DNA from: a bacterium
GTDB lineage: Bacteria > UBA8248
Assembly (NCBI GenBank): GCA_965204535.1
Contig: CBDBEV010000001.1
Coordinates: forward strand, 2,906,892-2,970,891
DNA: 64,000 bases
Reading direction: 5' to 3'
Part shown: positions 8,942-36,348 of the stretch, in pieces
Layout of the letters: every line of letters begins with the position of its first letter
How positions within the stretch are numbered: the first letter of the stretch is position 1
The notes under the pieces: generated by a model
Seen by the model: the letters and a program-made list of their open reading frames with translations, nothing else
Told to the model about the DNA's origin: nothing
Database searches by the model: none
Program-made: the position numbers and the translations under genes

Positions 8942-8967
8942 GGCAATCGCGACCGAGGAGAGAGATT

Positions 8968-9037
8968 GTAGGGGTCGCATAAATGCGACCCGTGTCACGT
9001 CGGTGAAAAATGAGGGACGCATATATGCGTCCCCTAC
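8968..9037. repeat. Pair of GTAG-type REP-like palindromes
   Basis: gtaggggtcgcataaatgcgaccc and gggacgcatatatgcgtcccctac; a related copy lies near 34522. Confidence 0.75.
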
Positions 9038-9208
9038 ACTTGCGTCGACGTGAGCGACGTCTGGATATGTAACCACGCCCCTGGGAGCCAGCAGGTACAA
9101 CCCCGCCCCGTTGCGCTAGAATGCCCCCATGAATAACCGACGTTCCCCGGCAAAATTCACAATTCCTTTTGGGCGAAATCTGTTCGTGTTCCCCCGGGCC
9201 AACCCTCG

Positions 9209-10141: not shown

Positions 10142-10158
10142 TGTGAGGTTTTGGTTTT

Positions 10159-10496
10159 GTAGGGGTCAGACATATATGTCTGACTACGTGTCCTCCCTTT
10201 TTGTTTACCGTCCTGATCGCATTGTATCTATTGTGGCAGGCACACAGGTCCGCCCCTGCTGCCACAAAGACATTGCCGTCATTCCGGCGAATGCCGGAAT
10301 CCAGGGGTTTTGTCTTTTGTCTTTCTTTTTTTCTCGTCGCTCTATGGATGCGAGGTAATAGAACGCCGCGTATTTTCAACCTACCCGGTTCTGGATTCCG
10401 GCATTCGCCGGAATGACGGTGTATTGTATCCGTGGGTCATTTCTACCGAAAAAGGGCAGGATCGCTTTATTGGGACAGGTCGCGACCTGTCCCTAC
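10159..10496. repeat. REP-like mosaic: GTAG palindromes and a perfect 29-bp inverted pair
   Basis: ccgtcattccggcgaatgccggaatccag (10276-10304) is the exact reverse complement of 10391-10419. Also gtaggggtcagacatatatgtctgac and gggacaggtcgcgacctgtccctac. Confidence 0.8.
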
Positions 10497-10548
10497 GGTC
10501 TACGGGCCCCCTTCCATCCGGCCCCGTTTGGGGTAGAATACCCCCGCT

Positions 10549-14874: not shown

Positions 14875-15185
14875 GGACAGGTCGCGACCTGTCCCTACAA
14901 AACCTGCAATCCCCGTTCATCGGGACTTTTTCAACAACCCTTCCTCAGGGGATAAAGGCAACCCCCCCTACCCCCCCTTGACAGGGGGGTATGAAAAAAC
15001 AACCCCCCTTCGACCCGGAGGCGGACGTCGTCTTTTTTCATATCCTCCACTTGCCGGGGCGTCGGACTTTTTTACCCCCCTGACAAGGGGGGGTAGGGGG
15101 GGTTGCTTTTCATGCAGGTGAGAGGGCAACCAAATCGAACGAGGAGGCGCCGCCCCGTAGGGACAGGCCCCCGTGCCTGTCCTGA
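14871..15185. repeat. REP/MITE-like palindrome cluster
   Basis: gtagggacaggtcgcgacctgtccctac; inverted pair caacccccctacccccccttgacaggggg ... ccccctgacaaggggggg; gtagggacaggcccccgtgcctgtcc. Confidence 0.8.
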
Positions 15186-15230
15186 CGAGGGACAACCACA
15201 CGGACGGGAAAATCATTGCCATTCCAAAAT

Positions 15231-18988: not shown

Positions 18989-19017
18989 GAAGAGCGCCTT
19001 CCGGAATTATGCGGAAA

Positions 19018-19054
19018 CGGGCGCCGGGATAATCGCGGGAATCCCCGGCGCCCG
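19018..19054. promoter_or_regulatory. Intercistronic hairpin (likely mRNA stabiliser)
   Basis: cgggcgccggg ... cccggcgcccg between the binding-protein and permease genes. Confidence 0.5.
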
Positions 19055-19092
19055 CTCATTCCTCCAGCGTGGTGAAACTGCGCTTTCTCAGA

Positions 19093-20115
19093 TTACATCG
19101 CTCCCACTTCCTTGTAATAACGGGCTGCGCCGGGGTGCATGGGAACGCCTTTCATGTTCTTCACGGAACGTTTGGGTTCCAGGAAACCGTAAAGCCTGTG
19201 GGCACCCTTCAGATAATCCTTGTTTTCAAAAACGGTTTTCGTCACCTTGTAGATCAGGTCGGGTGATTGGTCTCCTCTCGTGAAAATGATCGTTCGGAGT
19301 CCGTAGGTATCGAGGGGTTTCTTCTGGCCGGGATAGGTATTCGCGTCCACAATCGATTCCACCAGGCCGAAATTTTCCAGCCTCTGCCGCATGCCCGGGG
19401 TGACCCCGGTGAAATTGATGGGGCGGCGCAGGGCCGCTTGTTTGATCAATCCGTTACCGGGGCCGGTGTGGAACAGGACGAAATCCACGTGCTTGTCCTG
19501 ATAGAAGCGCATCATGGCGCGGCCTCCGCCGAGGCGGACCGACACGCCCGCTTTTTTCAGCGCAGCGGTCGAGGTTCCGTACTCCTTCAAAAGGTAGGTC
19601 GCAATGTTGTAGGTTCCCGTCCCTTTCTTCCCGATGGTTATTCCGGCCCTGGGTTTCTTCTGCACGAAATCCTCGAACGATTGAATCCCTTTATCGACCA
19701 GTTCGGGCGCCGCCATGAAATGAACGGCGGACGTATAGAGCCATACCATGGCCCTCAAGTTCGGATACTTTTTCTTGTATGGTTTTTTGCCCGCAATGGC
19801 GTTTCCCACGTAATACGTGTAACTGTAGGCGATGTCGGACTTGCCCACCCCCACCAGTTGCGGGTTGGATTTTCCCCCGCCCAGGGTGACGTTCAGGGAA
19901 TAGTCCTTGTTCTTGCGGTTGAAGACGTCCGCAAGAGCGCCCGCCATGACATAGAGTGTGCTGGCGACGGTGGCGGCCCCCAGTTTGACCGCTTTTTTGG
20001 CGGCTTCGACTTTGGGGGGAGCGACCAGTACGAATACAAACAAGGCGACGCAGGCTGCAATCCGTGCTGAGTGCTGGCGACAAGTCTTTTTGAGCATCAA
20101 TTTACCCTCCCTCAT
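19093..20115 (-). CDS. TAXI-family TRAP solute-binding protein
   Basis: Signal peptide, GG..N, NLRA...LY, ANTYPGQ, PMHPGAARYYKE. Confidence 0.92.
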   Translation of the reverse strand: MREGKLMLKKTCRQHSARIAACVALFVFVLVAPPKVEAAKKAVKLGAATVASTLYVMAGALADVFNRKNKDYSLNVTLGGGKSNPQLVGVGKSDIAYSYTYYVGNAIAGKKPYKKKYPNLRAMVWLYTSAVHFMAAPELVDKGIQSFEDFVQKKPRAGITIGKKGTGTYNIATYLLKEYGTSTAALKKAGVSVRLGGGRAMMRFYQDKHVDFVLFHTGPGNGLIKQAALRRPINFTGVTPGMRQRLENFGLVESIVDANTYPGQKKPLDTYGLRTIIFTRGDQSPDLIYKVTKTVFENKDYLKGAHRLYGFLEPKRSVKNMKGVPMHPGAARYYKEVGAM

Positions 20116-21006: not shown

Positions 21007-21351
21007 TATTGATCTCCTCCGCTTTCCGGTGGGCATTGAAAACGAGGCCATCAATCCATGAATCAAAACCAGACGGGAAATTTTGACGTAAAGTGTCGCT
21101 TGGACGTGGGGCGTATGTCAACTATTCGAAATTCATCCCCTGAGCCACATTGAATTTGAAAACCGTGCCGGGAGATTCCATGAGAAAATTTCACGCTCGG
21201 CAAATGCGACCACATCAATCGGGTTGAATGCCTCTGCAATTCTTTGCCGAGGCGTCTTCAGAACGTCTTGTTTGACTTCGCTTCCTATCAGACACCATAT
21301 TAGGGACACTTCGTGAAACGATAATCTCACATACGAGTGGGAGGCCTACCC

Positions 21352-22542
21352 GTGAATCCAGTCGCTCAAGCGGAAACCACAACAGACATCATCGACGCCT
21401 CAACCGGCAAAAAGATGAACATCATCGATTGCGATATTCATCCCCGAATGCCGAAAGGAGTGCAATCTCTCGTGCCCTATCTCCCCGAGAAGTGGCAGGC
21501 GCGGATCGGGATGAAGGGCGCCCTGGTGAAAGACGAAGCGAACCCCCGGAATACGTTCGCCGTTCCCAGGCGCGCGTTCTTCCATCCTCACCCCGGGGGG
21601 TCCGGGCGAGTGGATGCCAGGCCGCCCGAAGGCGGCCCCATCGGTTCGGACATCGGCTTCCTGGCGAAACAGCTGCTCGACGAACACGACATCAACTACG
21701 CCATCATCGTCGGTCAGGACGCCACGGGCGTCTCGGGAATCCCGGATGCGGACTTGAGCGCCGCCTACGCCTCCGCCTACAACGATTTCGTTCTCACCGA
21801 GTGGGCTTCCACCGACGAACGCTTCAAGGCGTGCATCTGGGTGAGCCCGCGCGATCCGAATCTCGCGGCGGAGGAAATCGATCGACTGGCCGGTCATCCC
21901 GATATCGTCTCGGTCCAGGTTTGCCCGATGGACATCCCCCTGGGCCAGCGGTACATGTGGCCGATATACGAAGCGGCCTCCCGCCACCACCTGCCCGTCG
22001 CGATTCACGGCGGCTCTGAAACCGCCGGCGTCAATCCACCGATGCTGGCCGTGGGAATGCCTTCTTATTTCATCGAGTTACACAGCGGCTTGCCCCAGGT
22101 GGGGTGGATGCACGTGACGAGCATGGTATGCGAGGGGGTGTTCGCACGCTTCCCGAACCTGAAATTCATCGTCCAGGAGATGGGTTACGCCTGGGTCGCA
22201 GGCCTCATGTGGCGCCTGGACAAGGAGTGGAGATCCCTGCGGCTCGAGGTTCCCTGGGTCAAGGAGCCGCCCAGCGAAGTCATTCGCAAGCACGTGCGGT
22301 TTACGAGCCAGCCCGTCGAGGAGCCGCCCAGGCCCGAATTCAACGAGCAGATGCTGAAAATGATCTATGCGGAAGACACGCTTCAGTTTTCTTCCGACTA
22401 TCCGCATTGGGACTTCGACGACCCGCGCTATGTTTTCCCCAACATCGACCCGCAGCTGCACAAGAGCATCTTTTATGGAAATGCGCTCGGCACTTACCCG
22501 AAGATCCATAAACTCGTGGCGGGAGAAAACGGGGAAACCTGA
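21352..22542 (+). CDS. Amidohydrolase_2-family metalloenzyme (possible dinuclear oxygenase)
   Basis: IIDCDIH, AYND, PIYEAA...LPVAIH, EGVF.RFP.LK, SSDYPHWD; ggagg RBS before GTG at 21352. Confidence 0.88.
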   Translation: MNPVAQAETTTDIIDASTGKKMNIIDCDIHPRMPKGVQSLVPYLPEKWQARIGMKGALVKDEANPRNTFAVPRRAFFHPHPGGSGRVDARPPEGGPIGSDIGFLAKQLLDEHDINYAIIVGQDATGVSGIPDADLSAAYASAYNDFVLTEWASTDERFKACIWVSPRDPNLAAEEIDRLAGHPDIVSVQVCPMDIPLGQRYMWPIYEAASRHHLPVAIHGGSETAGVNPPMLAVGMPSYFIELHSGLPQVGWMHVTSMVCEGVFARFPNLKFIVQEMGYAWVAGLMWRLDKEWRSLRLEVPWVKEPPSEVIRKHVRFTSQPVEEPPRPEFNEQMLKMIYAEDTLQFSSDYPHWDFDDPRYVFPNIDPQLHKSIFYGNALGTYPKIHKLVAGENGET

Positions 22543-22952
22543 TGGGAAAGCATATCGTATCCAGGGTGTCGGATTTCCCTCCCGGCGAAAGAAAAATCGT
22601 CGAATTCGAAAACCGCTCCATCGGAGTATTCAACGTCAAGGGCGAGTATTTCGCCTTGAGAAACGTATGCCCCCACCAGGGAGCGCCATTGTGCATCGGG
22701 CCCGTGCGCGGAACCATGGATGCGGAAACGCCTCACCGGATTCAGTATGTGAAAGACGGCGAGATTATCGTCTGCCCCTGGCATTGCTGGGAGTTCGACA
22801 TCCTCACGGGGCGATCCGTATTCAACCCGCACCGCACCCGCGTGAGGGCGTACAAGGTGACGGTCGAGCGGCCGGAGAGTGCAGAGGAAGACCCTTCCGT
22901 GGAAACATTCCGGGTAACGGTGGAGGACGATCTTGTCGTCCTGCACGTGTGA
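22542..22952 (+). CDS. Rieske [2Fe-2S] ferredoxin
   Basis: CPHQG ... CPWH.WEFD; translationally coupled to the amidohydrolase. Confidence 0.92.
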   Translation: MGKHIVSRVSDFPPGERKIVEFENRSIGVFNVKGEYFALRNVCPHQGAPLCIGPVRGTMDAETPHRIQYVKDGEIIVCPWHCWEFDILTGRSVFNPHRTRVRAYKVTVERPESAEEDPSVETFRVTVEDDLVVLHV

Positions 22953-23173
22953 CGCGAACCATCCCGGCAAAATCCCGCATCGACAAGTCGAGCCGTTTTC
23001 ATAGGCGGCGAGATTCTCTTCGGGAATTATATGCTTGAGTTGACAGTAGCAGGATTACGGGTTCTGGATTCGAAAGGGAACAATGAAATCACTCCCCTTT
23101 GAGAGTCATTCCCGACCAATAGAGAGGAATTTCCGATCTGGAATAGGGGCAGGTCGCGGCCTGACCCTGCAGG

Positions 23174-23992
23174 CTATTTTTTCCCGGCGGCGGCCGCTCT
23201 GGGCGCGGCCAGCGCCAGGGCGGATGGCGCCCTGCGGAGGCTCAGCATGTAGACCGTCAGCGCTTCGAGATCCTCAGGCTTCAAATGGCCGTAGGCGGGC
23301 ATGGCGGAGCCGGGCGAAACCTTCTGCGGGAACTTGAAATGTTCGATGTGCCACTTCGGGTCCTTCCGGCGCTCGCCCGCAAAGGTCAGGTCGGGCCCGA
23401 CGACCCCGCCGGCGCCCCTGATCTTGTGGCAGGCGAGACAGCCGTTCATCAGATAAAGCAGTTTTCCCCTCTGGATGAGGGGGGCGTCTTTGAGAGCCCC
23501 CGCGTGGCAGGGGCCGCAACTCGCCTGAATGAACCCTCCCCGCAGCAGCGGCTCCTCCCAGAACGCGACTTCGCCGTGGGCGTCCTGGACGCTCGTCGCC
23601 CGGCCCTGGCCCTGGTGGCACACGGTGCAGCCGAACCGCTCGAAGGGATGCGGCGGGATGGTGGGGTGTCTGGCGAAAGGCTGCTCGGCATCCTTGAACG
23701 CCGGGTGCTCGACGCCGCGGTGGCACATGACGCACCTGTCCACGCGCTCGCCGCCGGCCACGATGATTTGCTCGAACTGGTCCCCGCTCGCCAGAGCGGC
23801 CTTGCGCTCCTCTTCGGTTCCGGCTCTTTCGACGAGCATTTCACGGAACGTCCGCTGGTAGCCCCGCCATTCGCGGTCGTAATCCTTCCAGACGGACAAG
23901 AGAAAAAACAAGGCCGCGCAGACGCTCAGGGCGGCGAAGGCGACCACCCACCCGAACGGCACATGGGAATCGTTCTGATTTGAATTGGCCAT
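23174..23992 (-). CDS. Membrane-anchored tetraheme cytochrome c
   Basis: N-terminal TM helix; CVMCH, CTVCH, CGPCH, CLACH; distal Met in SAMP. Confidence 0.9.
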   Translation of the reverse strand: MANSNQNDSHVPFGWVVAFAALSVCAALFFLLSVWKDYDREWRGYQRTFREMLVERAGTEEERKAALASGDQFEQIIVAGGERVDRCVMCHRGVEHPAFKDAEQPFARHPTIPPHPFERFGCTVCHQGQGRATSVQDAHGEVAFWEEPLLRGGFIQASCGPCHAGALKDAPLIQRGKLLYLMNGCLACHKIRGAGGVVGPDLTFAGERRKDPKWHIEHFKFPQKVSPGSAMPAYGHLKPEDLEALTVYMLSLRRAPSALALAAPRAAAAGKK

Positions 23993-24004
23993 ACGTTATC
24001 CGCC

Positions 24005-25501
24005 TCAGTGCAGGCCCGTCGCCTGCCACGGCCATATCCAGGCCCAGTTGGCGCCGCGGAAATAAAGCCCGATGAGCGTATAAATCAGGTAAGACGTCAG
24101 AAAATATGAATACAGGGCCAACGCCCCCATCCGGCTCGACCCCGTGCGCCGCCAGATGTAGAGCGACCCGGCGGCGAAGAGGACGATCAGTATGGTCCCC
24201 GGATTCAGGAGGTCGACCCAGATCTGCGAGGCGCCCGGGACCAGTATCCGCACGGCGTAGTGCTCGTTCAGCCAGGTCAGGACGAGGACGACCGGGATGA
24301 CCGCCGCGACCGACCAGAGCGTGATCCGGCGGCCCTGGCCCGAGGTGAACCAGGTTCCCTGGCCCTCGGGGTTACGATCGATGTAGGGAATGCTCATGAG
24401 GCCGATAATCGCGGCGGCGGGAACGATGACGCCTCCCGCCAGGGCGGAATAGCTCACGATTTCCTGGAGCCCGAGAAAATACCAGGGCGCCTTGGCCGGG
24501 TTGGGCGGATGGTCCGGGTTGGCCAGCTCCTCCAGAGGCGCATCGAAGAAGTAGGCGACGGCGGAGAGGACGGCCACGACGCCCACGAAGACGACCAGCA
24601 TCCGGAAGACCGTATGCGGCCAGCTCATGACCTCTTCTTCGGGGGCCTGCGCCTCCACCATGGGCGTCTTGCCCTCGGCCAGCTCCACGAGCATGTACGT
24701 CTTGTGCGGCGAAAAAGCCGCCGCCTCGCCCCGGGCGGCCACAGAGGGCGGCGCGGGCGGCCGGGAGAGGCCCCCGTCCTTGCGTATCCGCCAGAAATGG
24801 ACGCCCATGAGTATCATCATGATTCCCGGCAGGACGATGACGTGCATGACGTAGAACCGGATCAGCGCGTTCTGCCCCACCGTATCGCCTCCGAGCATCA
24901 GCGTGCGGATGTGCTCTCCTACCAGCGGCGGGTAGCTGGCGATGCTCGACCCGACGGTGATGGCCCAATAGGCGAGTTGATCCCAGGGGAGGAGGTAGCC
25001 CGTGAAGCTCATCATCAGGGTCGCCCCCCAGAGGAGCACCCCGATGACCCAGTTGAACTCACGCGGCGCTTTGTAACTCGCCGTATAGAACACGCGGCAC
25101 ATGTGCAAAAAGACGACGGCGACCATCGCGTGCGCAGCCCAGCGGTGGAGGTTCCGCAGGACGACGCCGTAGGAGACGACGAATTGCAGGTCCTTCATGT
25201 CGCTGTAGGCGCGCTCGGTCGAGGGGACGTAGAAGAACATGAGCAAGGAGCCGGTGCCCAGAAGAATGATGAACAAGAACAGGGAGATGACCCCGAGTCC
25301 CCAGGTGTAGGTGGGTTTTAAGCTGTGAACGTGCGTTCGCGCGGGAAGGACGTGCAGGAAGAAATTCGAGAACATGACGGCCGCGCGATCCAGATCGTTG
25401 TCCGGATAGCCGCGGCGGAAGATCGAGCGGACGACGCGGTTGTCCCTAAGCCACGATACGGCTTTTCCGCGCCCTGATTTCTGCGGGGATTCGGTGACCA
25501 T
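24005..25501 (-). CDS. Cytochrome b of a Rieske/cytb complex (N- and C-terminal domains fused, extra C-terminal helices)
   Basis: [23 protein letters not shown]...H, Qo-like PAKAPWYF. Confidence 0.92.
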
Positions 25502-25510
25502 TGGGGCGGC

Positions 25511-26002
25511 TCAGATCTTGAAATGTTCGGAGGGGGCGACGACTTTGCGCGTATCGACCACGACGCGGCCATCCGGCGATTTCTTGACGAGGAAAAAGTC
25601 GAGCCCCCGGGGCGCAGGTCCCCCGAGCACCTGTCCCCGCCCGTCGAACGTGCTGCCGTGGCAGGGGCACCGGGCCCTCAATATATCGGGAGAGGCGCCG
25701 GGCGCGCCGACGAAGGGGCTGATCACGCAACGGAGATGCGGACAGACGGCGGTGCAGGCCCGGAACCCGTCCTTCTCGCGAAACAGAACGATTTTCTTCT
25801 CTGCGAAAAACGTGATGGACCCCACGGGGTACTTCTCCAGGGAGTCGAGCTTCAGAACCGACTCGCCCTCATAAACGACGTTGGGGAACAGGAAGCGGAC
25901 GTTGGCGAGAACCGGACCCAGCAGGGAGATCAGGAAGGAAACCCAGCCGAGACCCAAAAGCATCCGTCGCCGGGGGGTCTGTTCATCCAGGCTCGCAGTC
26001 AT
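25511..26002 (-). CDS. Rieske Fe-S subunit of a Rieske/cytb complex
   Basis: RRR plus TM anchor; CPHLRC ... CPCHGS.FD; GPAPRGL. Confidence 0.92.
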   Translation of the reverse strand: MTASLDEQTPRRRMLLGLGWVSFLISLLGPVLANVRFLFPNVVYEGESVLKLDSLEKYPVGSITFFAEKKIVLFREKDGFRACTAVCPHLRCVISPFVGAPGASPDILRARCPCHGSTFDGRGQVLGGPAPRGLDFFLVKKSPDGRVVVDTRKVVAPSEHFKI

Positions 26003-26003
26003 G

Positions 26004-28049
26004 TCATCCAGTCTCCACCCACTCTTCCTGGAAAGAAAAATTCTCGATGGTGACGGCGCCCGTGGGACAGCGCTGGGCGCAGAGCGAACAACGGATGCAC
26101 TTGTCCGGGTCCATGATCATCGCCGCGCCTCTCTCTCCTGCGCCCCCGGCGGACGTGCCAAAGCGGGCCTGGACCAGAGCCGCCAGGTCCTCTCCACCCT
26201 GAAGGGCTTCGAGGGGAACCATTCGAAGACAGCGTGAGGGGCAGACGTCCACGCAGCCGCCGCAGAGGATGCACCTGGCGCCGTCGAAGATCGGGTTAGC
26301 ACTACAGCGCAGACACCGGAGCCCCTGTTCGACCGCCTCCCCGGGCGAATAACCAAGCTCCACCTCGGCGACGCCGATTCTGCGCTCGATGGGCAGCGCG
26401 TCGGGGTTTCGGCGAGACACTTTCTGGTAGCCGGGATTGACGATGGGAAGGGAAAACCCGTCTCCCGGCTCCTGGAGCAGCGCTTGTTGCAAGGGTTCGA
26501 CAGAGGCCCACTGAAGATGCGTCTGGACGCCTGCCTGACCGCCGGACAGATAGGTGTGAATGGAGCGGGCGGCGCGGTGGCCGTTTTCCACGCCCTCGAT
26601 GAAGATACGGGGACCCATGGCGACGTCCCCGCCCGCGTACACGCCTGGAGCGGTCGTGGCCAGGGTTTCGGGATCAACGCGGATCGTCCCGCGCGGCGTC
26701 GTCTCGACGCCGTCCTCATCCTTGATCCAGGAGAGATCGGAGGCCTGGCCGACGGCGACGATCACCGAATCGCACGGAATCACGCGCCTGGTGTCCGGGT
26801 CGAATTCCGGGCTGAAGCGGCCCTCCTCGTCGAAGACGCGGGTGCACGTCTGGACTTCCAGCCCGACCACGCGGCCTTCTTTCTCCACGATGCGGACGGG
26901 CCCCACCCGGGGCTCGAGCTCGATCCCCTCATCGAGGGCTTCTTCGATCTCGAAATCCGCCGCCGGCATCTCGTCGCGCGATTCGAGGCAGATGACGTGG
27001 ACGTTCCTCGCTCCCACGCGCATCGCCTCCCGGGCCACGTCCATCATCTCGCGCATGAGGACGGCGTCTTCCGTTTGATCGGCCGCGCCCGCGGGGGCAT
27101 CCGCCCCGCCGGCGACCCGGGCGGCGACCCGGGCGGCGTCCATGGCCACGTTTCCCCCGCCGATCACGACGACGCGCTCGCCCAAATCGACGCGGAAGTT
27201 CAGATTCACGTTCAGCAGAAACTCGACGGCCCGGAAAACGCCGTCCGCGTCCTGTCCTTCCATGGGGAGAGAGCGACTCACATGAGCGCCGATGGCGACG
27301 AACACCGCCTCGAAGCCTTCCTCGCGAAGGGAGGAGAGGTTGAAGTCCCGCCCGATGGCCTGGTTCAGCCGAAGCTCCACGCCCAGGCTGAGGATGGCCT
27401 GGATTTCGGCCTGAACGAGGTCGCGCGGGAGCCTGTATTCGGGAACCCCGAGCATCAGCATGCCGCCGGGAACGCCCTGTTTTTCGAAAACGCTCACGTC
27501 ATAGCCGAGCAGGGCGAGATCGTGGGCGCAGGTCAGCCCCGCCACGCCCGATCCGACGACGGCCACCTTTTTTCCTGCCGTCTTTTCCTGTTCGGGCTTT
27601 CGGCGGGCCGCCTCCAGCACCGAAAAATCGTTGATGGTGCGCGTGGAGGGCTGAAAACGGAGGTCGCGCATACTCCTGAGGCTCCGGTGCGAGAAGGAGG
27701 ATTCTCCCTTGCCGGACGACAAATCGGCCTCGACCCCGTAGCGTTCCGTCACGAATCGCTTGAGCGCCCGGATGGCCACCGGCGCATCGATGTTGCCGCG
27801 GCGGCACGCCGCTTCGCACGGCGCCGCGCAGACACGCCCGCAAACCGACGCGAAGGGGTTGGGCCCCCGGGCGATGATGTAGGCGCGCTCGAAGTCTTGC
27901 TCCGAGATGGCGGTCACGTAACCCCGCGCGTCCGTATGGACGGGACACGCGTCCTGGCAGCAAATCGTTTTCCGCCAGTGGTCGTGGCCGGGCAACTCGA
28001 CCCGAAAGGAGCGCTCGGGAAGGGGAGCGTCCCGATTCCCTGAACCCAT
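26004..28049 (-). CDS. GltD/NfnB-like FAD/NAD(P) oxidoreductase with extra C-terminal 2x[4Fe-4S] domain
   Basis: CQDACP, CGRVCAAPCEAAC, VVGSGVAG, GVPEYRLP, VIGGGNVAMD, GGD, RCLRC, CILCGGCVDVCP, CIRCSLCAQRCP. Confidence 0.92.
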   Translation of the reverse strand: MGSGNRDAPLPERSFRVELPGHDHWRKTICCQDACPVHTDARGYVTAISEQDFERAYIIARGPNPFASVCGRVCAAPCEAACRRGNIDAPVAIRALKRFVTERYGVEADLSSGKGESSFSHRSLRSMRDLRFQPSTRTINDFSVLEAARRKPEQEKTAGKKVAVVGSGVAGLTCAHDLALLGYDVSVFEKQGVPGGMLMLGVPEYRLPRDLVQAEIQAILSLGVELRLNQAIGRDFNLSSLREEGFEAVFVAIGAHVSRSLPMEGQDADGVFRAVEFLLNVNLNFRVDLGERVVVIGGGNVAMDAARVAARVAGGADAPAGAADQTEDAVLMREMMDVAREAMRVGARNVHVICLESRDEMPAADFEIEEALDEGIELEPRVGPVRIVEKEGRVVGLEVQTCTRVFDEEGRFSPEFDPDTRRVIPCDSVIVAVGQASDLSWIKDEDGVETTPRGTIRVDPETLATTAPGVYAGGDVAMGPRIFIEGVENGHRAARSIHTYLSGGQAGVQTHLQWASVEPLQQALLQEPGDGFSLPIVNPGYQKVSRRNPDALPIERRIGVAEVELGYSPGEAVEQGLRCLRCSANPIFDGARCILCGGCVDVCPSRCLRMVPLEALQGGEDLAALVQARFGTSAGGAGERGAAMIMDPDKCIRCSLCAQRCPTGAVTIENFSFQEEWVETG

Positions 28050-28059
28050 GCCCGCGATC

Positions 28060-28446
28060 CTATTTCGCCAGGGAGCGCATGAACGCGACCAGGTTCTGGA
28101 GGTCCGCGTCCGAAAGAACCCCGCCCCAGGGGGGCATCAACGGCGATTTCCCGACCGCGACGCCGCCAAGCTTGGTGATCTTGGCGATATATTCGTCCGA
28201 TATGGTCTTCATGTATTTGGCGTCGGTGTGATTCCTCGGCTTCGGGTTGAGCGCCTTGGCCGCGGGGCCGTCGCCCTTGCCCGATGCGCCGTGGCAGGAG
28301 GCGCAAAGCTGCTGGTATTTGACGTTGCCGGCCGCAACGTCGCCTTTCTGCTGAGCGGCCCCGTCATCCGAAGACCAGAAAAAGAGCGCAACTGCAAGCG
28401 CCAGGCCGGCGCAGATGAGAAACCTTCTCGATCGAGACATTCGCAT
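28060..28446 (-). CDS. Monoheme periplasmic cytochrome c
   Basis: Signal peptide, CASCHG.SGKGDGP, MPPWG. Confidence 0.92.
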   Translation of the reverse strand: MRMSRSRRFLICAGLALAVALFFWSSDDGAAQQKGDVAAGNVKYQQLCASCHGASGKGDGPAAKALNPKPRNHTDAKYMKTISDEYIAKITKLGGVAVGKSPLMPPWGGVLSDADLQNLVAFMRSLAK

Positions 28447-28493
28447 TCAACCTCCCTCGCGGTTTTACGGGCTTGTGTAAACCTCCATCTCCA

Positions 28494-31160
28494 TCAAAGC
28501 GTCCGGGGGACAAAGCTTAAGCTCGTCAGCGAATGCTTGTGCGGAGATTCTCCTATCTTCTTCAACTTCCCCTTGCCCAGCTTGTAGCGGTAGCGGTTGG
28601 TCAGGGGGTCCGGCACCCGGTGGACCACCGAATTGGCCGGGTTCTCGGGAAAGCCGAAATAGGCGAAGGTGACGCCCTCGCGAACCGCGTCCGTGACCAT
28701 GGCCACCGCGGTGAAGCTCCCCTTGCTCTTCTTGATATTCCCGGCCTTCATGAGCTCGGTGAACGTCTGCTCCTTGCCGTCGACGCCGATGTATCCGCCC
28801 GTCTGCACGAGGAGGTCGTCGTTCTCGATGGCCACGAGGTCTCCTGATTCGATGCCCCGGGCGCCGGCGTCTTTGGGGTGAATTTCCAGGAACTGCTGCG
28901 GCCAGCGCTGCATGATGTAGGGCCGCCGCTTGTCGTCGTAGCCGGATTGCCAGAGCTCGTTGATCCGCCCGTTCGTCACCCACAGTTCGTCCCCCTGCGG
29001 GGTGACCCGGTCGTAGAAGTCCTTGAAATCCTCCCAGTAGCTTTTCAGCAAGACCGCCTTGCCGCTCTGGGTCCCGAAGGAGGTGAGCCACTTCCGGTGC
29101 ATGGTGGGCCCCTCGGGGGTTCCGAGTTCCAGGGTCTCGTCGTGGAGGCGCTTCGTCCCGACGAGTTCGCCCTTGACCATGCGGATGGGGGTTTGGATGC
29201 CGTCGGTCCCGTATTCGCGGAGCAATTCGTGGCCCCGTTTCCCCTCGCGCTTGGCCTTCACCACGAGCGGGTGGTAATTGAGCACCCCCTTGCGTCCGAA
29301 GCGGGCCGCTTCCTCGAAGATCTGGTTGCTGTCCTTCCAGTCGAAGCCCTTGAAGCCCATCTTCCTCGCGAAGGCCGCGATGATCCACCAGTCGGGCCGG
29401 GCCTCACCGGGGGGGTCGGCGAACTTGCTGTAGAGCCTGAGGCGGCGCTCGCCGTTGCACCGGGTGAAGTCCTCCTCGCCCCAGGTGGCGGCCGGGAGCA
29501 CCAGGTCCGCATACTCGGTTCCGATCGGGGAAACGGGATAGATGTCCTGGTGGGCGACGACCATGCCGCCGGAATCCACTCGCTGCTTGAGCGCGTCCAC
29601 CGCCGTATCGACGTCGAAGCTCTCGATCTGGTGCGGGTTGCGGCGCGTCAACCGCTGGAAGACGTCCATCAACTCCTGAGACGCCGCCATGGCCTGGCAC
29701 CAGGTGGTTCCGATGACCCATGCGAAGCGCACGTGGCCGTCCACGACCCAGCGGTCGAGGTCGATCTCCTTCTTGCGGCGCCCCGGCGCCTTCTCCGGCG
29801 ACAGGCTCCTCGGATAACCGGCCCCTCCCATCCAGCCCCGCTGGTGTCCACCGCCGCGGGAGATCACCCGGCCCGGCCGCGACCCGGCGCCGCAGACCAG
29901 CCCCAGCGCCGCAAAGGAAGCCGTGTTCCCGAAACTGTTGCACCAGTAATTGCCCTTCTCGAGCATGAACGAGGTCTTCTTGCGGGTTCCGTCGGGCTTG
30001 GGCTTGGCGAGGATTTCAGCCGTCTGGCGTATGGACGCCGCGGACACGCCCGTTATCTTCTCGGCGCGCTCCAGTTCGGCGTAGGGATAGCTCATGATCC
30101 ACTTCTTGTAGCCCTCGAAGTCCGTCCCGTACTTGCCCCAGGTCGTGACCCACTGCCAGGGCGTGTTGCGGGTGCCGCGCCCCATGCCGGAGCCGATCTC
30201 CCACTTGTTCGAGATTTTTCGCGCGATCCACTCCTTGTCCTCCCAGCCGTTCTCGAGGATCAGGCGGATGATGGCCAGGTGGAGCACCGTGTCCGTCCCC
30301 GGAATGACGGGGAGAAAGAGACCGCCGCGCTTCTCGCCGTAGGCCACGCCCGAAGTCTTGCGCGGCATGGCGAAGACGAGTTTCTTGCTCGGCGTTTTCC
30401 CGCCCATGATCCACGAGGTGAACAGCACCGACTTGGTCTCCCAGGGGTCGACGCCCGAGAAGAAGATGACCTCGGCCTCTCCCCAGTCGTCATAGGAGGC
30501 GCTGAAGGGGTTGATGCCGGAAAAATCGATCCCGGGCGTGTCCTTGCCGGGGCCCGGCTTGTCATGCGGGGCGTAGGCCGGCGTTCCGATGGCGCGGAAA
30601 GCGAGCTTGGAGATGGCGTAGGTGTTCTCGAAATACTGGTAGGAATACGTCTTCATCGCCCAGGCGTGCTCGCCGAACTTGTCCAGGACGTGCTTCGAGA
30701 TTCCCGCCATGACGCCCACCGCCGTATCCCACGAGACCTCCTGCAAGGTACCGCGGACCCGCATCATCGGCTGGCGCAGGCGGTCCTGCGAGGGTTCGTT
30801 GGGGTTGTAGAGCTTCTTGGCCAGGACGCCGCCCCGGATGGAGTGGTTCCCCCCGACGTTCACGACATTCGCATCCTTGTCCGGCATGACGACGACGTGG
30901 TGGGGACTGCCGTCCACCATGATGATGTTGTGCATGTTCGGGCTGACCCAGCCGCCGCTCATGATGGCGGTGGGGAAATCCACGCGCAGGGCGTTCTGGC
31001 TCGCCTTGGGTCCGCCCTCGCGACCGATCGGCCAGCGGTAGACCTTGTACCCGCAGCCCACGATGCAGTAGTCGCACGCCGTGGTGAACACCTCCGCGTT
31101 CGGCGGGGGGAGGGGGACACTGTCTTCCGCAAGATAGTAGTTCGTCACCTTTCCTGCCAT
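28494..31160 (-). CDS. idrA: AioA/IdrA-family molybdopterin oxidoreductase large subunit, most like iodate reductase IdrA
   Basis: PLPP..A....ACDYCIVGCGY [3Fe-4S] motif, VNVGGNHSIRGG, EKG.YW, SRGGGHQRG, NGERRLR, NGRINE. Adjacent to a Rieske subunit and two peroxidases. Confidence 0.8.
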   Translation of the reverse strand: MAGKVTNYYLAEDSVPLPPPNAEVFTTACDYCIVGCGYKVYRWPIGREGGPKASQNALRVDFPTAIMSGGWVSPNMHNIIMVDGSPHHVVVMPDKDANVVNVGGNHSIRGGVLAKKLYNPNEPSQDRLRQPMMRVRGTLQEVSWDTAVGVMAGISKHVLDKFGEHAWAMKTYSYQYFENTYAISKLAFRAIGTPAYAPHDKPGPGKDTPGIDFSGINPFSASYDDWGEAEVIFFSGVDPWETKSVLFTSWIMGGKTPSKKLVFAMPRKTSGVAYGEKRGGLFLPVIPGTDTVLHLAIIRLILENGWEDKEWIARKISNKWEIGSGMGRGTRNTPWQWVTTWGKYGTDFEGYKKWIMSYPYAELERAEKITGVSAASIRQTAEILAKPKPDGTRKKTSFMLEKGNYWCNSFGNTASFAALGLVCGAGSRPGRVISRGGGHQRGWMGGAGYPRSLSPEKAPGRRKKEIDLDRWVVDGHVRFAWVIGTTWCQAMAASQELMDVFQRLTRRNPHQIESFDVDTAVDALKQRVDSGGMVVAHQDIYPVSPIGTEYADLVLPAATWGEEDFTRCNGERRLRLYSKFADPPGEARPDWWIIAAFARKMGFKGFDWKDSNQIFEEAARFGRKGVLNYHPLVVKAKREGKRGHELLREYGTDGIQTPIRMVKGELVGTKRLHDETLELGTPEGPTMHRKWLTSFGTQSGKAVLLKSYWEDFKDFYDRVTPQGDELWVTNGRINELWQSGYDDKRRPYIMQRWPQQFLEIHPKDAGARGIESGDLVAIENDDLLVQTGGYIGVDGKEQTFTELMKAGNIKKSKGSFTAVAMVTDAVREGVTFAYFGFPENPANSVVHRVPDPLTNRYRYKLGKGKLKKIGESPHKHSLTSLSFVPRTL

Positions 31161-31172
31161 GATGCGTCCTCC

Positions 31173-31715
31173 TCAGCGCTGTACCGGCGCCAGATTCGAG
31201 TGATAACCATACAGCAGTCCCATCATCCCGATCGCGTAGATGTCGTCTCCTCGGGTTTCCAGAACCACCTGGGGGAGGCTTTCGGTGGCCTGCCCCGCCC
31301 CGACCATGCCGTGCTTCATCAGATCGAAGGTCGTCAGATGGAACGGGCACGGGCCGATGGCCTTGTGCTGCGCGTTATAAGTCCCCTGCAGGGGGCCGCC
31401 CATGTGGGTGCAGAGGGTGCTGAACGCCACCACGTCCCGCTTGGGGCCGACGCCGCCGCCGGCTTGAACGCCCAGTTTGACCAGCATGCACCCCGAGAAG
31501 ACGTCCTTCCACGGGTACTGGAAGAATTGCGGCGCATCGACCTTGAGGGCGCTGAGCGTCCCGATTTTCTGGCGGGGATACTCCGCCCTTTGCAGGGCCG
31601 CTCCGGCCAGGCCGGGGATGCCCTGGACCAGCACGATGCTCACGGCGGTTCCGCCGGCCAGGAGAAAGGCGCGCCGCGAGACGCAAGGCCGGGTTTCCTT
31701 GGCTTCCTGAGTCAT
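31173..31715 (-). CDS. idrB: AioB/IdrB-type Rieske small subunit with Tat signal
   Basis: SRRAFL twin-arginine leader, GGVGP..DVVAFS.LCTHMG, CPFH.T.FD, GQATESLPQV, GLLYG. Confidence 0.8.
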   Translation of the reverse strand: MTQEAKETRPCVSRRAFLLAGGTAVSIVLVQGIPGLAGAALQRAEYPRQKIGTLSALKVDAPQFFQYPWKDVFSGCMLVKLGVQAGGGVGPKRDVVAFSTLCTHMGGPLQGTYNAQHKAIGPCPFHLTTFDLMKHGMVGAGQATESLPQVVLETRGDDIYAIGMMGLLYGYHSNLAPVQR

Positions 31716-31725
31716 GGATTCCTCC

Positions 31726-32865
31726 TTACGGCATGGCCGCATACGGCGGCAGTTCGGGGGGCCGGACGAGCAGGGGCTTATCGCTCGAGAGCGATTCCAG
31801 AAACGCCAGCAGGTCTTCTTTCTCCTCGTCCGAAAGTCCCAGTTTCTTGATGAGGGGACTCTTGTTCGCATCCTCGCCGCCCCCTTCGTCATAAAAATCG
31901 ATGACCTCATCCAGTTCGAAAAATGCGCCGTTGTGCATATAGGGCGCAGTGTATTTGAGCTCCCTCAGGCTCGGGGTGCGGAACCTCCCCTTATCGGCCT
32001 CGCGCTTGGTGGTGTAGAAGAGCCCCAGGTCCCGGTCCGCCTTGCGGTAGACGGATTCGGGGACGCCGCGGATCACGTGCTGGTAGCGAAGCGTTATCTG
32101 CCTTAAAGGATCTTCCTCGAACGCGGGGCTCTTGGGAACGCCGACGTTGTGGTAGTCCTCATCCGAGAGGAGTGCGCCGTTGTGGCACTGGACGCACCCG
32201 GCCTTTCCCTGGAAGAGAGCCAGCCCGCGCTTCGCGCTGTCCGAGAGCGCCTTCTCCTCCCCTTTCATGAAGCGGTCGAAGGGCACGTCCTTCGCGTTGG
32301 AAACCACCGTGCGCTCGAAGGCCGAGATGGCCCGCCAGGCGTCGTCGATGGTCGGCCAGGGGGATCCGAACACCGCCCGGAAGCGCCTGACGTATTCGGG
32401 GACCTGGCGCAGGCGCTCCTCCATCATCATGGTGTCGCCGTTGCCGGCCACGTTGCCCGTGGCGGCGCTCTTCGCCTGCGCTTCGAGGCTCGTAGACTCG
32501 CCCGCCCAGAAGAGTTTTGCGTAGTAGGCGGAATTGAGGATCGTCTGGGAATTGCGCCAGTGCTGCGTGCCCGGATAGCCCCGGCTCAGATCGCCCCCGT
32601 CCCCCCAGCCGCTCTCGGGGCTGTGGCAGGAGGCGCACGACGTGCTGGCGTCGCCCGAGAGGCGGGCGTCGAAAAACAGCAGCTTGCCGAGCTCCACCTT
32701 GGCGGCGGACATGGGGTTGTCCGCGGGCACCGGGACAGGCGGCAAGGGTCCCAGCGGAGGGAATTTCCCCTCCTGGGCCGCGCTTGCTCCTCCCACCAGA
32801 AGTGCGGCGATGAAGCATACGGCCATCGTGGAACCCAGGAAGCAGTTTTTGATTCGCGCGTTCAT
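31726..32865 (-). CDS. Di-heme cytochrome c peroxidase/MauG family (IdrP-like)
   Basis: LGKLLFFD.RLS, CASCH, CVQCH, FRTPSLR, TAPYMHNG; start at 32865 with RBS gagga. Confidence 0.9.
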   Translation of the reverse strand: MNARIKNCFLGSTMAVCFIAALLVGGASAAQEGKFPPLGPLPPVPVPADNPMSAAKVELGKLLFFDARLSGDASTSCASCHSPESGWGDGGDLSRGYPGTQHWRNSQTILNSAYYAKLFWAGESTSLEAQAKSAATGNVAGNGDTMMMEERLRQVPEYVRRFRAVFGSPWPTIDDAWRAISAFERTVVSNAKDVPFDRFMKGEEKALSDSAKRGLALFQGKAGCVQCHNGALLSDEDYHNVGVPKSPAFEEDPLRQITLRYQHVIRGVPESVYRKADRDLGLFYTTKREADKGRFRTPSLRELKYTAPYMHNGAFFELDEVIDFYDEGGGEDANKSPLIKKLGLSDEEKEDLLAFLESLSSDKPLLVRPPELPPYAAMP

Positions 32866-32875
32866 GGCCGTCTCC

Positions 32876-33991
32876 TCAATTATCGCCGAGTTTGCGAAGT
32901 TCATAATCGGGAATTTTCGGCGCCGCAGCAAAAACCGTCTCGCCCGAGAGGCTCTTAAGGAACGCCACCAGGGCCTTCTTCTCATCCGCAGTCAGCCCCA
33001 GCGGCTTCAAGCGCGAGCTCTTGTTGGGGCCGCTCCCGCCGCCCCTGTCGTAGAAGGCGACGACGTCTTCAAGCGCGGCGAGTGCGCCGTTGTGCATGTA
33101 GGGCGCCGTCCGGGCGACTTCGCGCAGGGTCGGCGTGCGGAACTTGCCCCGGTCGCTCTCCTCTTTGGTCACGACGTAGAGGCCGGGGTCGGCCCTCAGG
33201 TTCATGAAGTTCGGGACGCCGATGACCTTGTTGAAGCGCCGGAAGGTGATGTGGCGCAGCGGGTCCTTGAATATCTGCTCGTTCTCGGGAACGCCGAGCG
33301 CGTGGAATCCGCCGTCGCTCAATAGCGCGCCGTTATGGCACTGAACGCAACCGGCCTTTCCGCTGAACAGGGCGAGGCCTTTTTGCGCCTCGGCGGAAAG
33401 GGCCTTTTTATCGCCCTTCAGGTAGTTGTCGAAAGGCGCGTTCTCCGAAGCGATGGTGTGCAGGAACGCCGCGATGGCCTTGAGCGCGCCGCCGAAGGAG
33501 GGCTCCCCGCCGTAGACCTCCTTGAATTTCTTCACGTAAAGCGGCACCTGCTTGAGCCGCTCGGGGAACAGCCGCCCGTCGACCAGCATGAAGTGGGCTT
33601 CGGTCAGGTGGTCCCGCACGAGCGTGGGCAGGTCGGCCCCGCTCAGGCGCCCGTCCCAGAAGACGCGCTTGTTGTAGGCGGCGTTTAAGAGCGTCTGGGC
33701 GTTCCGGAAATACTTGCTTCCCGGATAACCCGCCGAGAGCGCCTGCCCGTCGCCCCATCCCTTCGCGGGCTGGTGGCAGGCGGCGCAGCTGATCCCTCCG
33801 TCCCCCGACATCCGGGGGTCGAAGAACAGGTACCGGCCCAGTTCGGCCTGCGCGGGCTTCTGGGCCTTGGGCGCCGGCAGGGGCGCGAGAGAAGCCCCCA
33901 GGCCCGCGGCGGGGAGCAGAACCCAGGCGCTCAGCAGGACTCCGCAGAGTATCCGGCGCCGGACAACGCGAACTGATTTCATTCTTCGCAC
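32876..33991 (-). CDS. Di-heme cytochrome c peroxidase/MauG family (IdrP-like)
   Basis: LGRYLFFDPRMS, CAACH, FWDGR, CVQCH, FRTPTLR, TAPYMHNG. Confidence 0.9.
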   Translation of the reverse strand: MRRMKSVRVVRRRILCGVLLSAWVLLPAAGLGASLAPLPAPKAQKPAQAELGRYLFFDPRMSGDGGISCAACHQPAKGWGDGQALSAGYPGSKYFRNAQTLLNAAYNKRVFWDGRLSGADLPTLVRDHLTEAHFMLVDGRLFPERLKQVPLYVKKFKEVYGGEPSFGGALKAIAAFLHTIASENAPFDNYLKGDKKALSAEAQKGLALFSGKAGCVQCHNGALLSDGGFHALGVPENEQIFKDPLRHITFRRFNKVIGVPNFMNLRADPGLYVVTKEESDRGKFRTPTLREVARTAPYMHNGALAALEDVVAFYDRGGGSGPNKSSRLKPLGLTADEKKALVAFLKSLSGETVFAAAPKIPDYELRKLGDN

Positions 33992-34137: not shown

Positions 34138-34592
34138 TCAACTCCCCTCCTTAAACAGGGGACAAAGGCAACCCCCCCTACCCCCCCTTGTCAGGGGGGT
34201 ATAAAAAAGCACCCCCCGCAAAAAAGGATCAACTCTCCCCTTGAGGGGGTCGGGCTTTCCCCTCGGGAAGACCGACGAAGAGCTAAGGGCGAAGCCCGCA
34301 AGCGATTCGGTGGGGGGACATGCCACGGATAAAAACTCCCCCCACCACATCGGCCTTCGCACAAACCGCTCGGCCTCTGTCGGGCTTCCCGAGGGGAAAG
34401 CCCGACCCCCTCAAGGGGGGAGTTGATTGTTGAGCGCTCTACAAGGGGGGTTGCTCTTTCTTGCCCCCCTGACAAGGGGGGGTAGGGGGGGTTGTCCCTT
34501 CCGGTGAAATTCGATTGATCTGTAGGGGTCGCATATATGCGACCCTGCCTTTTTTCGCCGCCGCTCATGGGCCGCATGTATGCGGCCCCTAC
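34138..34592. repeat. Nested REP/MITE-like palindrome cluster
   Basis: Outer caacccccctacccccccttgtcaggggg pair encloses an actc.ccccttgagggg ... ccctcaaggggggagt pair; GTAG REPs follow. Confidence 0.8.
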
Positions 34593-34803: not shown

Positions 34804-35547
34804 TTATTTCGCAGAAAACGTGAAGTCGGCCGTCTTCTTTCCTCCGGTGGAAATTTTGATCCTTTTCTTCTTGACCCCCAGGGCCGGGTGCCACGCCCGC
34901 AGCGCGTATTTCCCCGGCGGGACGTCTGCGATCTCGAAGCGCCCGTCCGCGCCCACGAGCGCGTAGTAGGGGTTCCGGGCCACGAAGAGGAATCCCTTCA
35001 TCCAGTTGTGCACGTCGCACTCGACCCGGACGATGGGGCTGCGCCGCACCTTCGCCCGGCGGACGACCTTCTTCCGCTGTTTGGGCTGGGAGATGTTCCA
35101 CATGGAGCGCTTCGCCCGGCCGATGATCTCGTAGGTGTGGATGTTGTGGTGGGCGGCGTCGCTGTTCAGGATGGTGACCTTGCCCCCCTCGGCGACGACC
35201 TGGAGGTAGGGCACGTAGGCGCACTTCTTCTGGTCCACCACGGCGCTCTTGATTTTCCCGGGATACGCCTTGCCCTTTTTGACCTTGTCGAGATAGACGA
35301 CCACGCCCCTCAAGGCGCCGTCTTTCGCGTCCACCTCCTGGCGGGTGACCTGGCCCTTGCCGCAGGCGTGCTGGTCCTTGGTGATGATGTATTTGACGGG
35401 GGCGGGAGGCTTTCCCTCGAAGCTCACCTTGCCGGTGATGGTTCCGCCGTCTTTGACGGATGCGGCCTTGTACTTCGCCAGGGAAGCGTTCGGGGCAAGG
35501 AGGAAAGGCAGGGACAAAACGAATGGCAGGATGAATGTACGAATCAT
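34804..35547 (-). CDS. Secreted carboxypeptidase-regulatory-like/cupredoxin-like protein
   Basis: Signal peptide; GGTITGKV, DQKKCAYVP, NSD..HHNIH, CDVHNWM, G.F.I.DVPPG.Y....WH. Confidence 0.75.
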   Translation of the reverse strand: MIRTFILPFVLSLPFLLAPNASLAKYKAASVKDGGTITGKVSFEGKPPAPVKYIITKDQHACGKGQVTRQEVDAKDGALRGVVVYLDKVKKGKAYPGKIKSAVVDQKKCAYVPYLQVVAEGGKVTILNSDAAHHNIHTYEIIGRAKRSMWNISQPKQRKKVVRRAKVRRSPIVRVECDVHNWMKGFLFVARNPYYALVGADGRFEIADVPPGKYALRAWHPALGVKKKRIKISTGGKKTADFTFSAK

Positions 35548-35835
35548 TGCGAGAATTCCCCCACGAAATCTTGCATCGGATCACGGCAACCCTGTCGTCA
35601 ACTGTTCCGGGTCGTTTTCATCCTCCTCATCGGCGGCGCGCCGGCGCGGAAAGGGAGCGTCCTTTCCGCCTCGGGCGTGCTTTTTATGAACGTATTCCTG
35701 CTTTTAATATAAGGACTGCGGCTGAATGTTGCAACAGGATGGAAATGCGGTTTTCCCCCGGTGAGCGGGCCGTTGGGAAAGCCCTGTATGCGTCCCCCGG
35801 AAACCGCCGACGCCTCTTTCCTAACCCTGAAAACC

Positions 35836-36197
35836 AACCCCCCCTACCCCCCCTTGACAGGGGGGTATGAAAAGGCGACGCCCCGCCGCCGAGATGAACG
35901 CAAATCAACTCCCCCCTTGAGGGCCTGTTGAAAAACCCCTCGTCGAGCGGAATTGATTGCCGGAATGACAATCAAAAGCACATTCACCCGTAGGGGCGGC
36001 CCCCTGTGGCCGCCCTGCCCCGTGGCTACGCTTCGCACGGACAGGCACGGGGGCCTGTCCCTACGGTGAACAATTCGATGATCGGGATTCCTTCTCCACC
36101 GGAGGGTTTTTCAACAGACCCCCAAGCGGGGAGTTGATCTTTTTTTTGCGGGGGTTGCTCTTTTTACCCCCCTGACAAGAGGGGGCAGGGGGGGTTG
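35836..36197. repeat. Nested palindrome cluster containing a ~199-bp MITE-like element (35922-36120)
   Basis: TIRs ggcctgttgaaaaaccc / gggtttttcaacagacc (16/17 match) sit inside two outer inverted pairs and enclose GTAG REPs. Confidence 0.75.
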
Positions 36198-36348
36198 CAT
36201 TCCAGCCGGGGGAAGGGCGGCCACGGTCGAACTCCCCTCTTCGGGAAGTTCGACACCCCTACGGGTTCGTTACGTTACGATCGGTTTTCGTAGGGACAGG
36301 CCCCCGTGCCTGTCCGTGGCCCCCGTGCCTGTCCGGGGCCGGGCGTCC

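Follow-up and report, generated by a model that had tools for sequence, protein, structure and literature searches.

Introduction

The described idr clusters (idrABP1P2) of Denitromonas IR-12, Pseudomonas SCT and Azonexus hydrophilus NCP973 share the gene order P-P-B-A, with the pair of peroxidase genes being a published marker of Idr (PMC8692401; papers are cited by PubMed Central number). NCP973 is a tested iodate respirer, and divergent idr clusters reduced iodate upon expression in Escherichia coli (PMC13455634). The founding genetic study describes the IR-12 cluster as having no quinone oxidoreductase (PMC8692401). A second group of systems is represented by Kuste4569-74 and Kustd1480-85 of the anammox bacterium Kuenenia stuttgartiensis, NAD(P)-linked Rieske/cytochrome b complexes with a GltD-like FAD/Fe-S subunit; for Kustd1480-85 no downhill partner reaction has yet been proposed (PMC12954380). 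Genes for NAD(P)-binding Fe-S oxidoreductases also lie beside cytochrome b of subfamily G in many taxa (Dibrova et al., PMC5600118). Two questions, that of the electron route to Idr and that of the role of the NAD(P)-linked Rieske/cytochrome b complexes, meet in a ten-gene block that we describe here from a 64,000-nt stretch (the window; contig CBDBEV010000001.1, positions 2,906,892 to 2,970,891) of the genome of a bacterium of the lineage UBA8248.

In the block two known modules are genuinely joined, and this joining was likely made more than once. Its ten genes are best explained as one conserved block for a dedicated respiratory chain, which would carry electrons from quinol to Idr and a low-potential electron to NAD+; we give this reading an even chance of being correct. 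No description of an idr cluster paired with an NAD-linked bc module was found in the literature searched (iodate, idrA, Rieske and cytochrome b, UBA8248, sponge), a search that covered papers outside subscription and left aside the neighbourhood figures of PMC8692401, and the pairing is not mentioned in the available parts of PMC10989891 and PMC11445184.

An idr cluster that continues into a bc-type module

An earlier reading of the sequence alone (the sequence-only reading) had proposed nine same-strand genes with small gaps, and this layout holds: all nine open reading frames (ORFs), named with the help of Pfam and NCBIfam profile searches, lie on the minus strand in the order claimed, separated from 5' to 3' by 10, 10, 12, 47, 10, 1, 9 and 12 nt (Table 1), with GTG 33991 as an alternative start of the first peroxidase gene. 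APWY at the PEWY position of cytochrome b (residues 338–341) and a tetrahaem cytochrome as the last gene, with four CxxCH motifs counted, were also read correctly. Neither a terminator nor a promoter that would split idrA from the downstream genes was given by consensus scans of the 47-nt gap, a weak indication of continuity; the promoter scan of the window is at chance level (2 found, 2.6 expected), and terminator-like consensus sites on the minus strand fall within genes (e.g. 28402–28385), plus one past the last gene (23106–23091).

The conserved unit is larger than the span first considered, and comprises the nine genes together with a cupredoxin-like gene upstream, which precedes the idr genes in relatives. 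Its distance from the first peroxidase gene is 76 nt in one relative (L003); in the window, palindromic repeats have pushed the two apart. Residues H134, C177, H180 and M183 of the encoded protein are invariant in 24 of 24 aligned homologues, a pattern which we take to be a likely type 1 copper site, and one atlas cluster is named blue copper at 0.96. The single-sequence fold, with a predicted local distance difference test score (pLDDT) of 30, was not used.

The identification of an Idr-like enzyme is upheld. The closest plasmid match to the idr genes is the NCP973 cluster, with identities of 52 and 61% for the peroxidases, 59% for IdrB and 58% for IdrA, compared with 30% between IdrA and Thermus AioA. 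In a quick tree of 49 rows the window IdrA is placed with the Idr sequences, close to NCP973, and has sequences of Methylomirabilota and Rokubacteria as its sister group; its grouping with NCP973 IdrA has a Shimodaira–Hasegawa-like approximate likelihood ratio test (SH-aLRT) support of 94 (unstarred), within a clade of support 100 that stands apart from two AioA sequences. Two dihaem peroxidase genes immediately precede idrB-idrA in the window, as they do in 47 of 47 other loci whose upstream sequence is long enough. Periplasmic targeting is suggested by motif and hydropathy scans only, with a twin-arginine motif (SRRAFL) on IdrB and hydrophobic N-termini on the peroxidases. Iodate is the predicted substrate of the enzyme.

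Alternatively, the molybdenum enzyme may oxidise its substrate (arsenite, iodide or another oxyanion), with the bc module reversed to make NADH. The profile searches call IdrB AioB-like and IdrA AioA-like, IdrA exceeds the NCBIfam cut-off for arsenite oxidase, and the host also has a haem-copper oxidase. However, the identity to AioA falls well below that to a tested IdrA, both peroxidases of the published Idr marker are present (PMC8692401), and it was iodate reduction that divergent idr clusters conferred in E. coli (PMC13455634). We regard an oxidative role as improbable.

The window departs from the reference clusters on both sides of the four idr genes. NCP973 also has a small cytochrome c gene after idrA, but the two proteins are only 29% alike, and its downstream DNA runs into moaA with no bc genes within 9 kb, whereas the window has a complete Rieske/cytochrome b module. 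The cupredoxin-like gene is a further attachment that sets the block apart from the idrABP1P2 clusters.

Cofactor ligands of the module

The earlier comparison with the NAD(P)-linked complexes of anammox bacteria is supported, as the flavoprotein, Rieske protein and cytochrome b of the module are homologous to theirs. Homologous clusters were fetched from hydrazine-synthase-positive genomes, one of which (G360) encodes proteins that reproduce the published residue numbers of Kustd1481, Kuste4571 and Kustd1483. The GltD-like subunits of the Kuenenia complexes are 34–35% identical to that of the window, and common features are a Lys at the FAD-proximal cluster, RKDGG, APWY, a Rieske protein with Ser and a multihaem cytochrome c. 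His50 of the window cytochrome b corresponds to His62 of Kustd1481 and His43 of Kuste4571; together with R240-K241 and R660 of the flavoprotein it matches His62, R266-K267 and R550 of the bridging-haem model for Kustd1481/1483 (PMC12954380). The position of Kuste4570 Arg511 is Gly in the window. There may be an extra, bridging haem at His50, and the flavoprotein may dock physically on cytochrome b.

The differences are equally clear. The window cytochrome b is one ORF of 498 aa with fused subunit IV, compared with a four-helix cytochrome b and separate subunit IV in anammox bacteria; the haem cN anchors of the anammox proteins (the Cys of CxGG and a Glu ligand) are G68 and M301; the c-type cytochrome has four haems instead of six or eight; the nucleotide motif is CLES instead of YRR; and the partner enzyme is Idr instead of an HAO-like protein. 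The window module is predicted to work like an anammox complex but is not classed as one. In a tree with an unresolved base and no clade G reference set, its cytochrome b falls among flavoprotein-linked and Geobacter-type short cytochromes b, and a search for short homologues returned no named anammox protein. The adjacency of flavoprotein and cytochrome b genes described for subfamily G agrees with the metagenome loci below, and no link to Idr is mentioned in the available text (PMC5600118).

The Rieske protein keeps Ser and has Phe at the Tyr position, like Kustd1480 (+335 mV; PMC12954380). Its first box, CPHLRC (CTHLRC in relatives), has Arg for the usual Gly across the clade, also in L154 and L166. 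The last haem of the tetrahaem cytochrome lies in a class I His/Met domain with an invariant M231; the structure model is poor over haems 1–3 and matches generic class I cytochromes c only (best E 9e-4). The host has a second, split bc complex elsewhere in its genome, so that of the block is an extra one. This second complex retains the Cys of haem cN, and no flavoprotein gene lies next to it (G000:C1:1195777-1198178 and 1203332-1206310; L123); the complex groups with anammox cytochromes b, and an octahaem gene lies 5 kb off on the opposite strand.

No signal peptide or membrane segment was found in the flavoprotein. Among solved structures it is best matched by NfnA of NfnABC and StnC of Sporomusa ovata (8oh5, 9bov, 9n5u), in which FAD is described as non-bifurcating and a Lys replaces the Glu that NfnB has at the proximal cluster (PMC10482914, PMC11829005). 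Lys97 of the window protein stands at the position of NfnB Glu126 (LKRF, compared with LERF in 5jca_L and 4ylf_B) and is invariant in 60 of 60 aligned homologues. No NfnA partner is encoded in the cluster, the single PF10418 match in the genome being a PyrK-like gene beside pyrD, and a search confined to the ten-gene block gave no gene for a BfuB/BfuC bifurcating module. The sequence-only reading had allowed for electron bifurcation at FAD, coupling NAD(P)H, ferredoxin and quinone. An NfnB-like fold, a C-terminal ferredoxin domain and R206, which occupies the position of NfnB R201 (the Arg at flavin N5), speak for it; R206 was dropped as a marker, since the Arg is kept in non-bifurcating StnC (PMC10482914). 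With Lys97 in place of Glu126, neither NfnA in the genome nor BfuB/C in the cluster, and only one evident exit path from the flavin, this option is not supported, and we consider it very improbable.

CLES, at residues 354–357, stands where the YRR motif is expected. By the rule described for DsrL, loss of YRR points to NAD(H) (PMC7596348), and the flavoprotein therefore looks specific for NAD(H) rather than NADP(H). Among the 112 flavoprotein sequences in the loci set, which includes near-identical relatives, 93 have CLE, 4 have YRR (all anammox) and 15 are unresolved. The window protein thus shares the Lys-ligated cluster and non-bifurcating FAD module of StnC and NfnA of NfnABC, and the YRR loss of DsrL-1, and differs from these in its two-cluster ferredoxin tail, in the lack of a BfuB/C partner in the cluster and in being encoded with a membrane complex.

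Distribution and origin of the linkage

The host genome (4.56 Mb, two contigs) was compared with a collection holding 51 genomes of the host phylum and 167 of Calditrichota; the idrA census covers the best 80 of 117 genome hits. The flavoprotein search used a cut-off of E 1e-60, at which one of five anammox genomes was matched though the fetched loci held homologues. Since this cut-off misses distant members, G053, G054, G057, G058, G060, G117 and G227 are to be read as having no match with this query only.

In the host phylum, idrA is matched in 17 of 51 genomes and the flavoprotein in 20 of 51. Of the 22 other genomes of the host genus, 13 have both parts, 8 have neither and one has only the module (G022, whose contig breaks off within the flavoprotein gene). 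Of 14 close-relative loci, 11 have all nine genes in this order on a single contig, and three run off the contig. A member of another family (G007) has the identical ten-gene order at 62–82% identity, and in G036 the idr genes are immediately preceded by a module with a different flavoprotein subtype. Linkage of the two modules is a conserved feature of the host's class. It also occurs in Calditrichota, where idrA is found in 8 of 167 genomes: the module follows idrA directly in five, two break at the junction and one has no match. These five loci also carry a second cupredoxin-like gene. The idr-linked flavoprotein subtype (at least 70% identity) occurs in seven of the 167 genomes, all idrA-positive, compared with any flavoprotein match in 26. 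The sequence-only reading expected linkage in related genomes, which these loci bear out.

The module is not special to Idr. Elsewhere it neighbours a type II dimethyl sulfoxide (DMSO) reductase (above cut-off) and, below cut-off, a Nap/Fdh-like enzyme, cbb3-like oxidase genes and a decahaem cytochrome. No idrA was found at the metagenome loci of the flavoprotein (0 of 80, the best 80 of at least 567 confirmed), 55 of which have a Rieske gene and 53 a cytochrome b gene. The earlier notion of a chain dedicated to Idr is kept in part: the linkage recurs and a dedicated chain is the best reading of the block, while the module as such lies beside other terminal oxidoreductases at some loci.

Several arrangements of the module were seen. 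In L197 (9953–19061) and L200, flavoprotein, Rieske and cytochrome b genes lead directly into the alpha and beta genes of a type II DMSO reductase, and this cytochrome b groups with the Calditrichota idr-linked type. In L219–L221 and L226 the order is Rieske, cytochrome b, heptahaem, cbb3-like oxidase subunits and then flavoprotein. The commonest metagenome form (L156:7740-17908 and about 30 loci, among the best 80 of at least 567) has a one-haem 520-aa protein with no NCBIfam match, a cupredoxin-like gene, flavoprotein and Rieske, and continues with a split cytochrome b, an octahaem, a cytochrome c and a porin-like gene. One Calditrichaceae genome (G051; L030, L142, L143) has three different module copies, beside Idr, a Nap/Fdh-like enzyme and a one-haem porin-like gene. 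In Calditrichota the first gene of the idr clusters is porin-like and stands under a sigma-54 two-component system (L030:5094-6182), and a regulator pair of this kind lies upstream in NCP973 too. At L028:14498-19113, L295:120-3623 and L301:8943-13648, in several Methylomirabilota-group genomes and one other, a large NarG/NxrA-like molybdoprotein is encoded a short way after idrA, with a beta subunit in view in two. A strict motif search for NosZ found none in loci L142–L239.

That one transfer of the whole block gave rise to the copies in both phyla is rejected by approximately unbiased (AU) tests. A single clade is rejected for IdrA of the two phyla (p 2e-50, 15 rows, the group having been fixed after seeing the tree), for the linked flavoproteins (p 5e-56, 12 rows) and for the linked cytochromes b (p 3e-5, 10 rows); the tests were made with quick LG+G4 trees, which cover selected subsets and contain some long branches. 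As three trees reject a single origin, it is likely that the pairing was assembled at least twice. An old linkage with many losses is not excluded by the tests, but separate assembly is the simpler reading because sister lineages are without the linkage.

RNA assemblies from four of eight listed runs, from two studies and labelled sponge, marine and coral metagenome, contain contigs of relatives (about 95% alike) that cover the block and together bridge every junction; the other four runs (X5–X8), whose word shares are small, do not enter this result. The junction of idrA, cytochrome c and flavoprotein genes is bridged in X1 (record 3, 27869–28985) and X2 (record 12, 26810–29646), and in X3 (record 23) a relative's contig joins the cupredoxin-like gene to the first peroxidase, skipping 784 nt. 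Cover was found in 30, 30, 30 and 24 of 30 bins of the block in the four runs, compared with 22, 20, 24 and 17 of 30 in a control stretch (1000–15200) that is not proven silent and is possibly partly absent in relatives; its longest listed on-target piece is about 500 nt. The runs were selected by containing the block, and DNA carry-over is possible. This cover fits transcription of the block in relatives.

A proposed electron path

Our observations suggest a path in which quinol would be oxidised at the outer site of the Rieske/cytochrome b complex, with one electron passing to the Rieske protein and on through the tetrahaem cytochrome and the small cytochrome c or the copper protein to the periplasmic IdrB-IdrA and the peroxidases. 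The second electron would travel over haems bP and bN, the bridging haem and four Fe-S clusters to FAD and NAD+, as proposed for anammox. The electrons would be split at the quinone, as in any bc complex, with the flavin as a plain end point. If the NADH were re-oxidised by the NADH dehydrogenase of the cell, the loop would replace the inner half of the Q-cycle. Iodate is a strong oxidant (about +0.7 V), sufficient to pay for the NAD+ branch. With the haem cN Cys and Glu replaced by G68 and M301, a conventional inner site for quinone reduction seems to be gone, and haem bN must pass its electron on by some other way; the loss of these anchors also removes a competing quinone sink, which is the main problem of the scheme according to Hauser et al. 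(PMC12954380).

The direction of flow in the module is a prediction, and the same chain might run in reverse at the flavin, with NADH as donor and the flavoprotein feeding cytochrome b to refill the quinol pool. Such an NADH-to-iodate chain would be natural for a heterotroph, and it accords with the NAD(H)-type motif CLES (YRR rule, PMC7596348), with the closest solved homologues, which oxidise NADPH and send electrons down an Fe-S wire, and with the subunit IV Glu retained in the Calditrichota copies. However, the window cytochrome b has neither haem cN anchor, and with no inner quinone site the electron would presumably have to cross outward and discharge the membrane; for energetic reasons, Hauser et al. 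argue that the anammox complexes do not run in this direction (PMC12954380). We consider NADH as donor possible but unlikely, and retain the quinol-driven chain ending on Idr and NAD+ as the best explanation.

Several observations weigh against this quinol-driven chain. Even for anammox, reduction of NAD+ by this mechanism is no more than a proposal, and a heterotroph has little need for extra NADH. Calditrichota cytochromes b keep the Glu and may therefore still reduce quinone. His50 is present in 96 of 96 flavoprotein-linked cytochromes b, but also in 3 of 3 unlinked and 120 of 120 short homologues, and was therefore rejected as a marker of flavoprotein docking. An RNA contig that spans several genes is no proof of a single transcript. 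Most Idr clusters work without the module, which was found at none of 59 other idrA loci (39 with at least 6 kb downstream) and at none of 17 further idrA stretches from Methylomirabilota and one other genome (6 with at least 6 kb downstream). In the host phylum, G040 and G050 have the module with no idrA match, and G048 has both parts unlinked; G117 has idr with no flavoprotein match at the cut-off used. That each module is found alone, and that G048 keeps them apart, could also mean that the shared operon reflects low-oxygen co-regulation with no direct electron path between the modules. This is difficult to reconcile with gaps of 1–47 nt, a shuttle gene between the modules, repeated separate assembly and the occurrence of the Calditrichota subtype exclusively with idrA, and we give it little credence.

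Gene coordinates and surroundings

Clusters of palindromic repeats resembling miniature inverted-repeat transposable elements (MITE) or repetitive extragenic palindromes (REP) flank the cupredoxin-like gene (34164–34494 and 35827–36205). Similar repeats lie near 10270–10480 and 14850–15200, where contig depth is high in the RNA runs. An amidohydrolase and Rieske ferredoxin pair (21337–22952) converges on the block, and beyond it lies what we take to be a TAXI-type TRAP transporter (16994–20115). On the other side, 36349–64000 is a mobile region with tyrosine recombinases, transposases, a relaxase-like gene and SSB, named by sequence inspection, and two long low-complexity lipoprotein-like ORFs.

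Table 1. Features of the block and its borders, in window coordinates
Feature	Position	Strand	Basis and remarks
Cupredoxin-like secreted protein, carboxypeptidase-regulatory-like flanks	34804..35547	-	PF13620/PF14686 weak; tenth gene
Palindromic repeat cluster between cupredoxin-like gene and first peroxidase	34164..34494	.	Gap between the two genes is 76 nt in L003
Dihaem cytochrome c peroxidase-like, first	32876..33982	-	PF03150; idrP2 position (published order P2-P1-B-A); 52% to first NCP973 peroxidase
Dihaem cytochrome c peroxidase-like, second	31726..32865	-	PF03150; idrP1 position; 61% to second NCP973 peroxidase
IdrB, Rieske subunit, twin-arginine motif SRRAFL	31173..31715	-	TIGR02694 above cut-off; 59% to NCP973 IdrB
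IdrA, molybdopterin subunit, CxxCxxxC [3Fe-4S] motif at 29-36	28494..31160	-	58% to NCP973 IdrA; tree
Monohaem periplasmic cytochrome c, likely shuttle	28060..28446	-	PF13442/PF00034
Cytoplasmic GltD/StnC-like FAD protein, four predicted Fe-S clusters, ferredoxin tail	26004..28049	-	K97, R206, CLES 354-357, R660
Rieske protein, boxes CPHLRC and CPCHGSTF	25511..26002	-	Best PDB match 9rk4 (anammox Kuste4569), E 1.8e-15
Cytochrome b with fused b6 and subunit IV parts	24005..25501	-	Pfam and residue alignment; four haem His, APWY
Membrane-anchored tetrahaem cytochrome c	23174..23992	-	CxxCH at 87, 122, 159, 185
Terminator-like hairpin past last gene (tetrahaem)	23091..23106	-	Consensus match only

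Implications

Neither half of the block is new, its hosts have yet to be cultivated, and the module is also found with other terminal enzymes; these points limit the significance of the finding. As the block names a partner enzyme, drops haem cN and changes the nucleotide motif, it nevertheless leads to sharp predictions, and its likely separate assembly in two phyla speaks for a functional wiring. The block points to iodate respiration in sponge-associated bacteria. More tentatively, and with less confidence than in the chain itself, a bc complex that has no inner quinone site and ends on NAD+ may be a portable plug-in for acceptors of very high potential, which iodate respiration would have acquired independently on two or three occasions and which would allow iodate-driven quinol:NAD+ reduction in sponge-associated and other marine bacteria.

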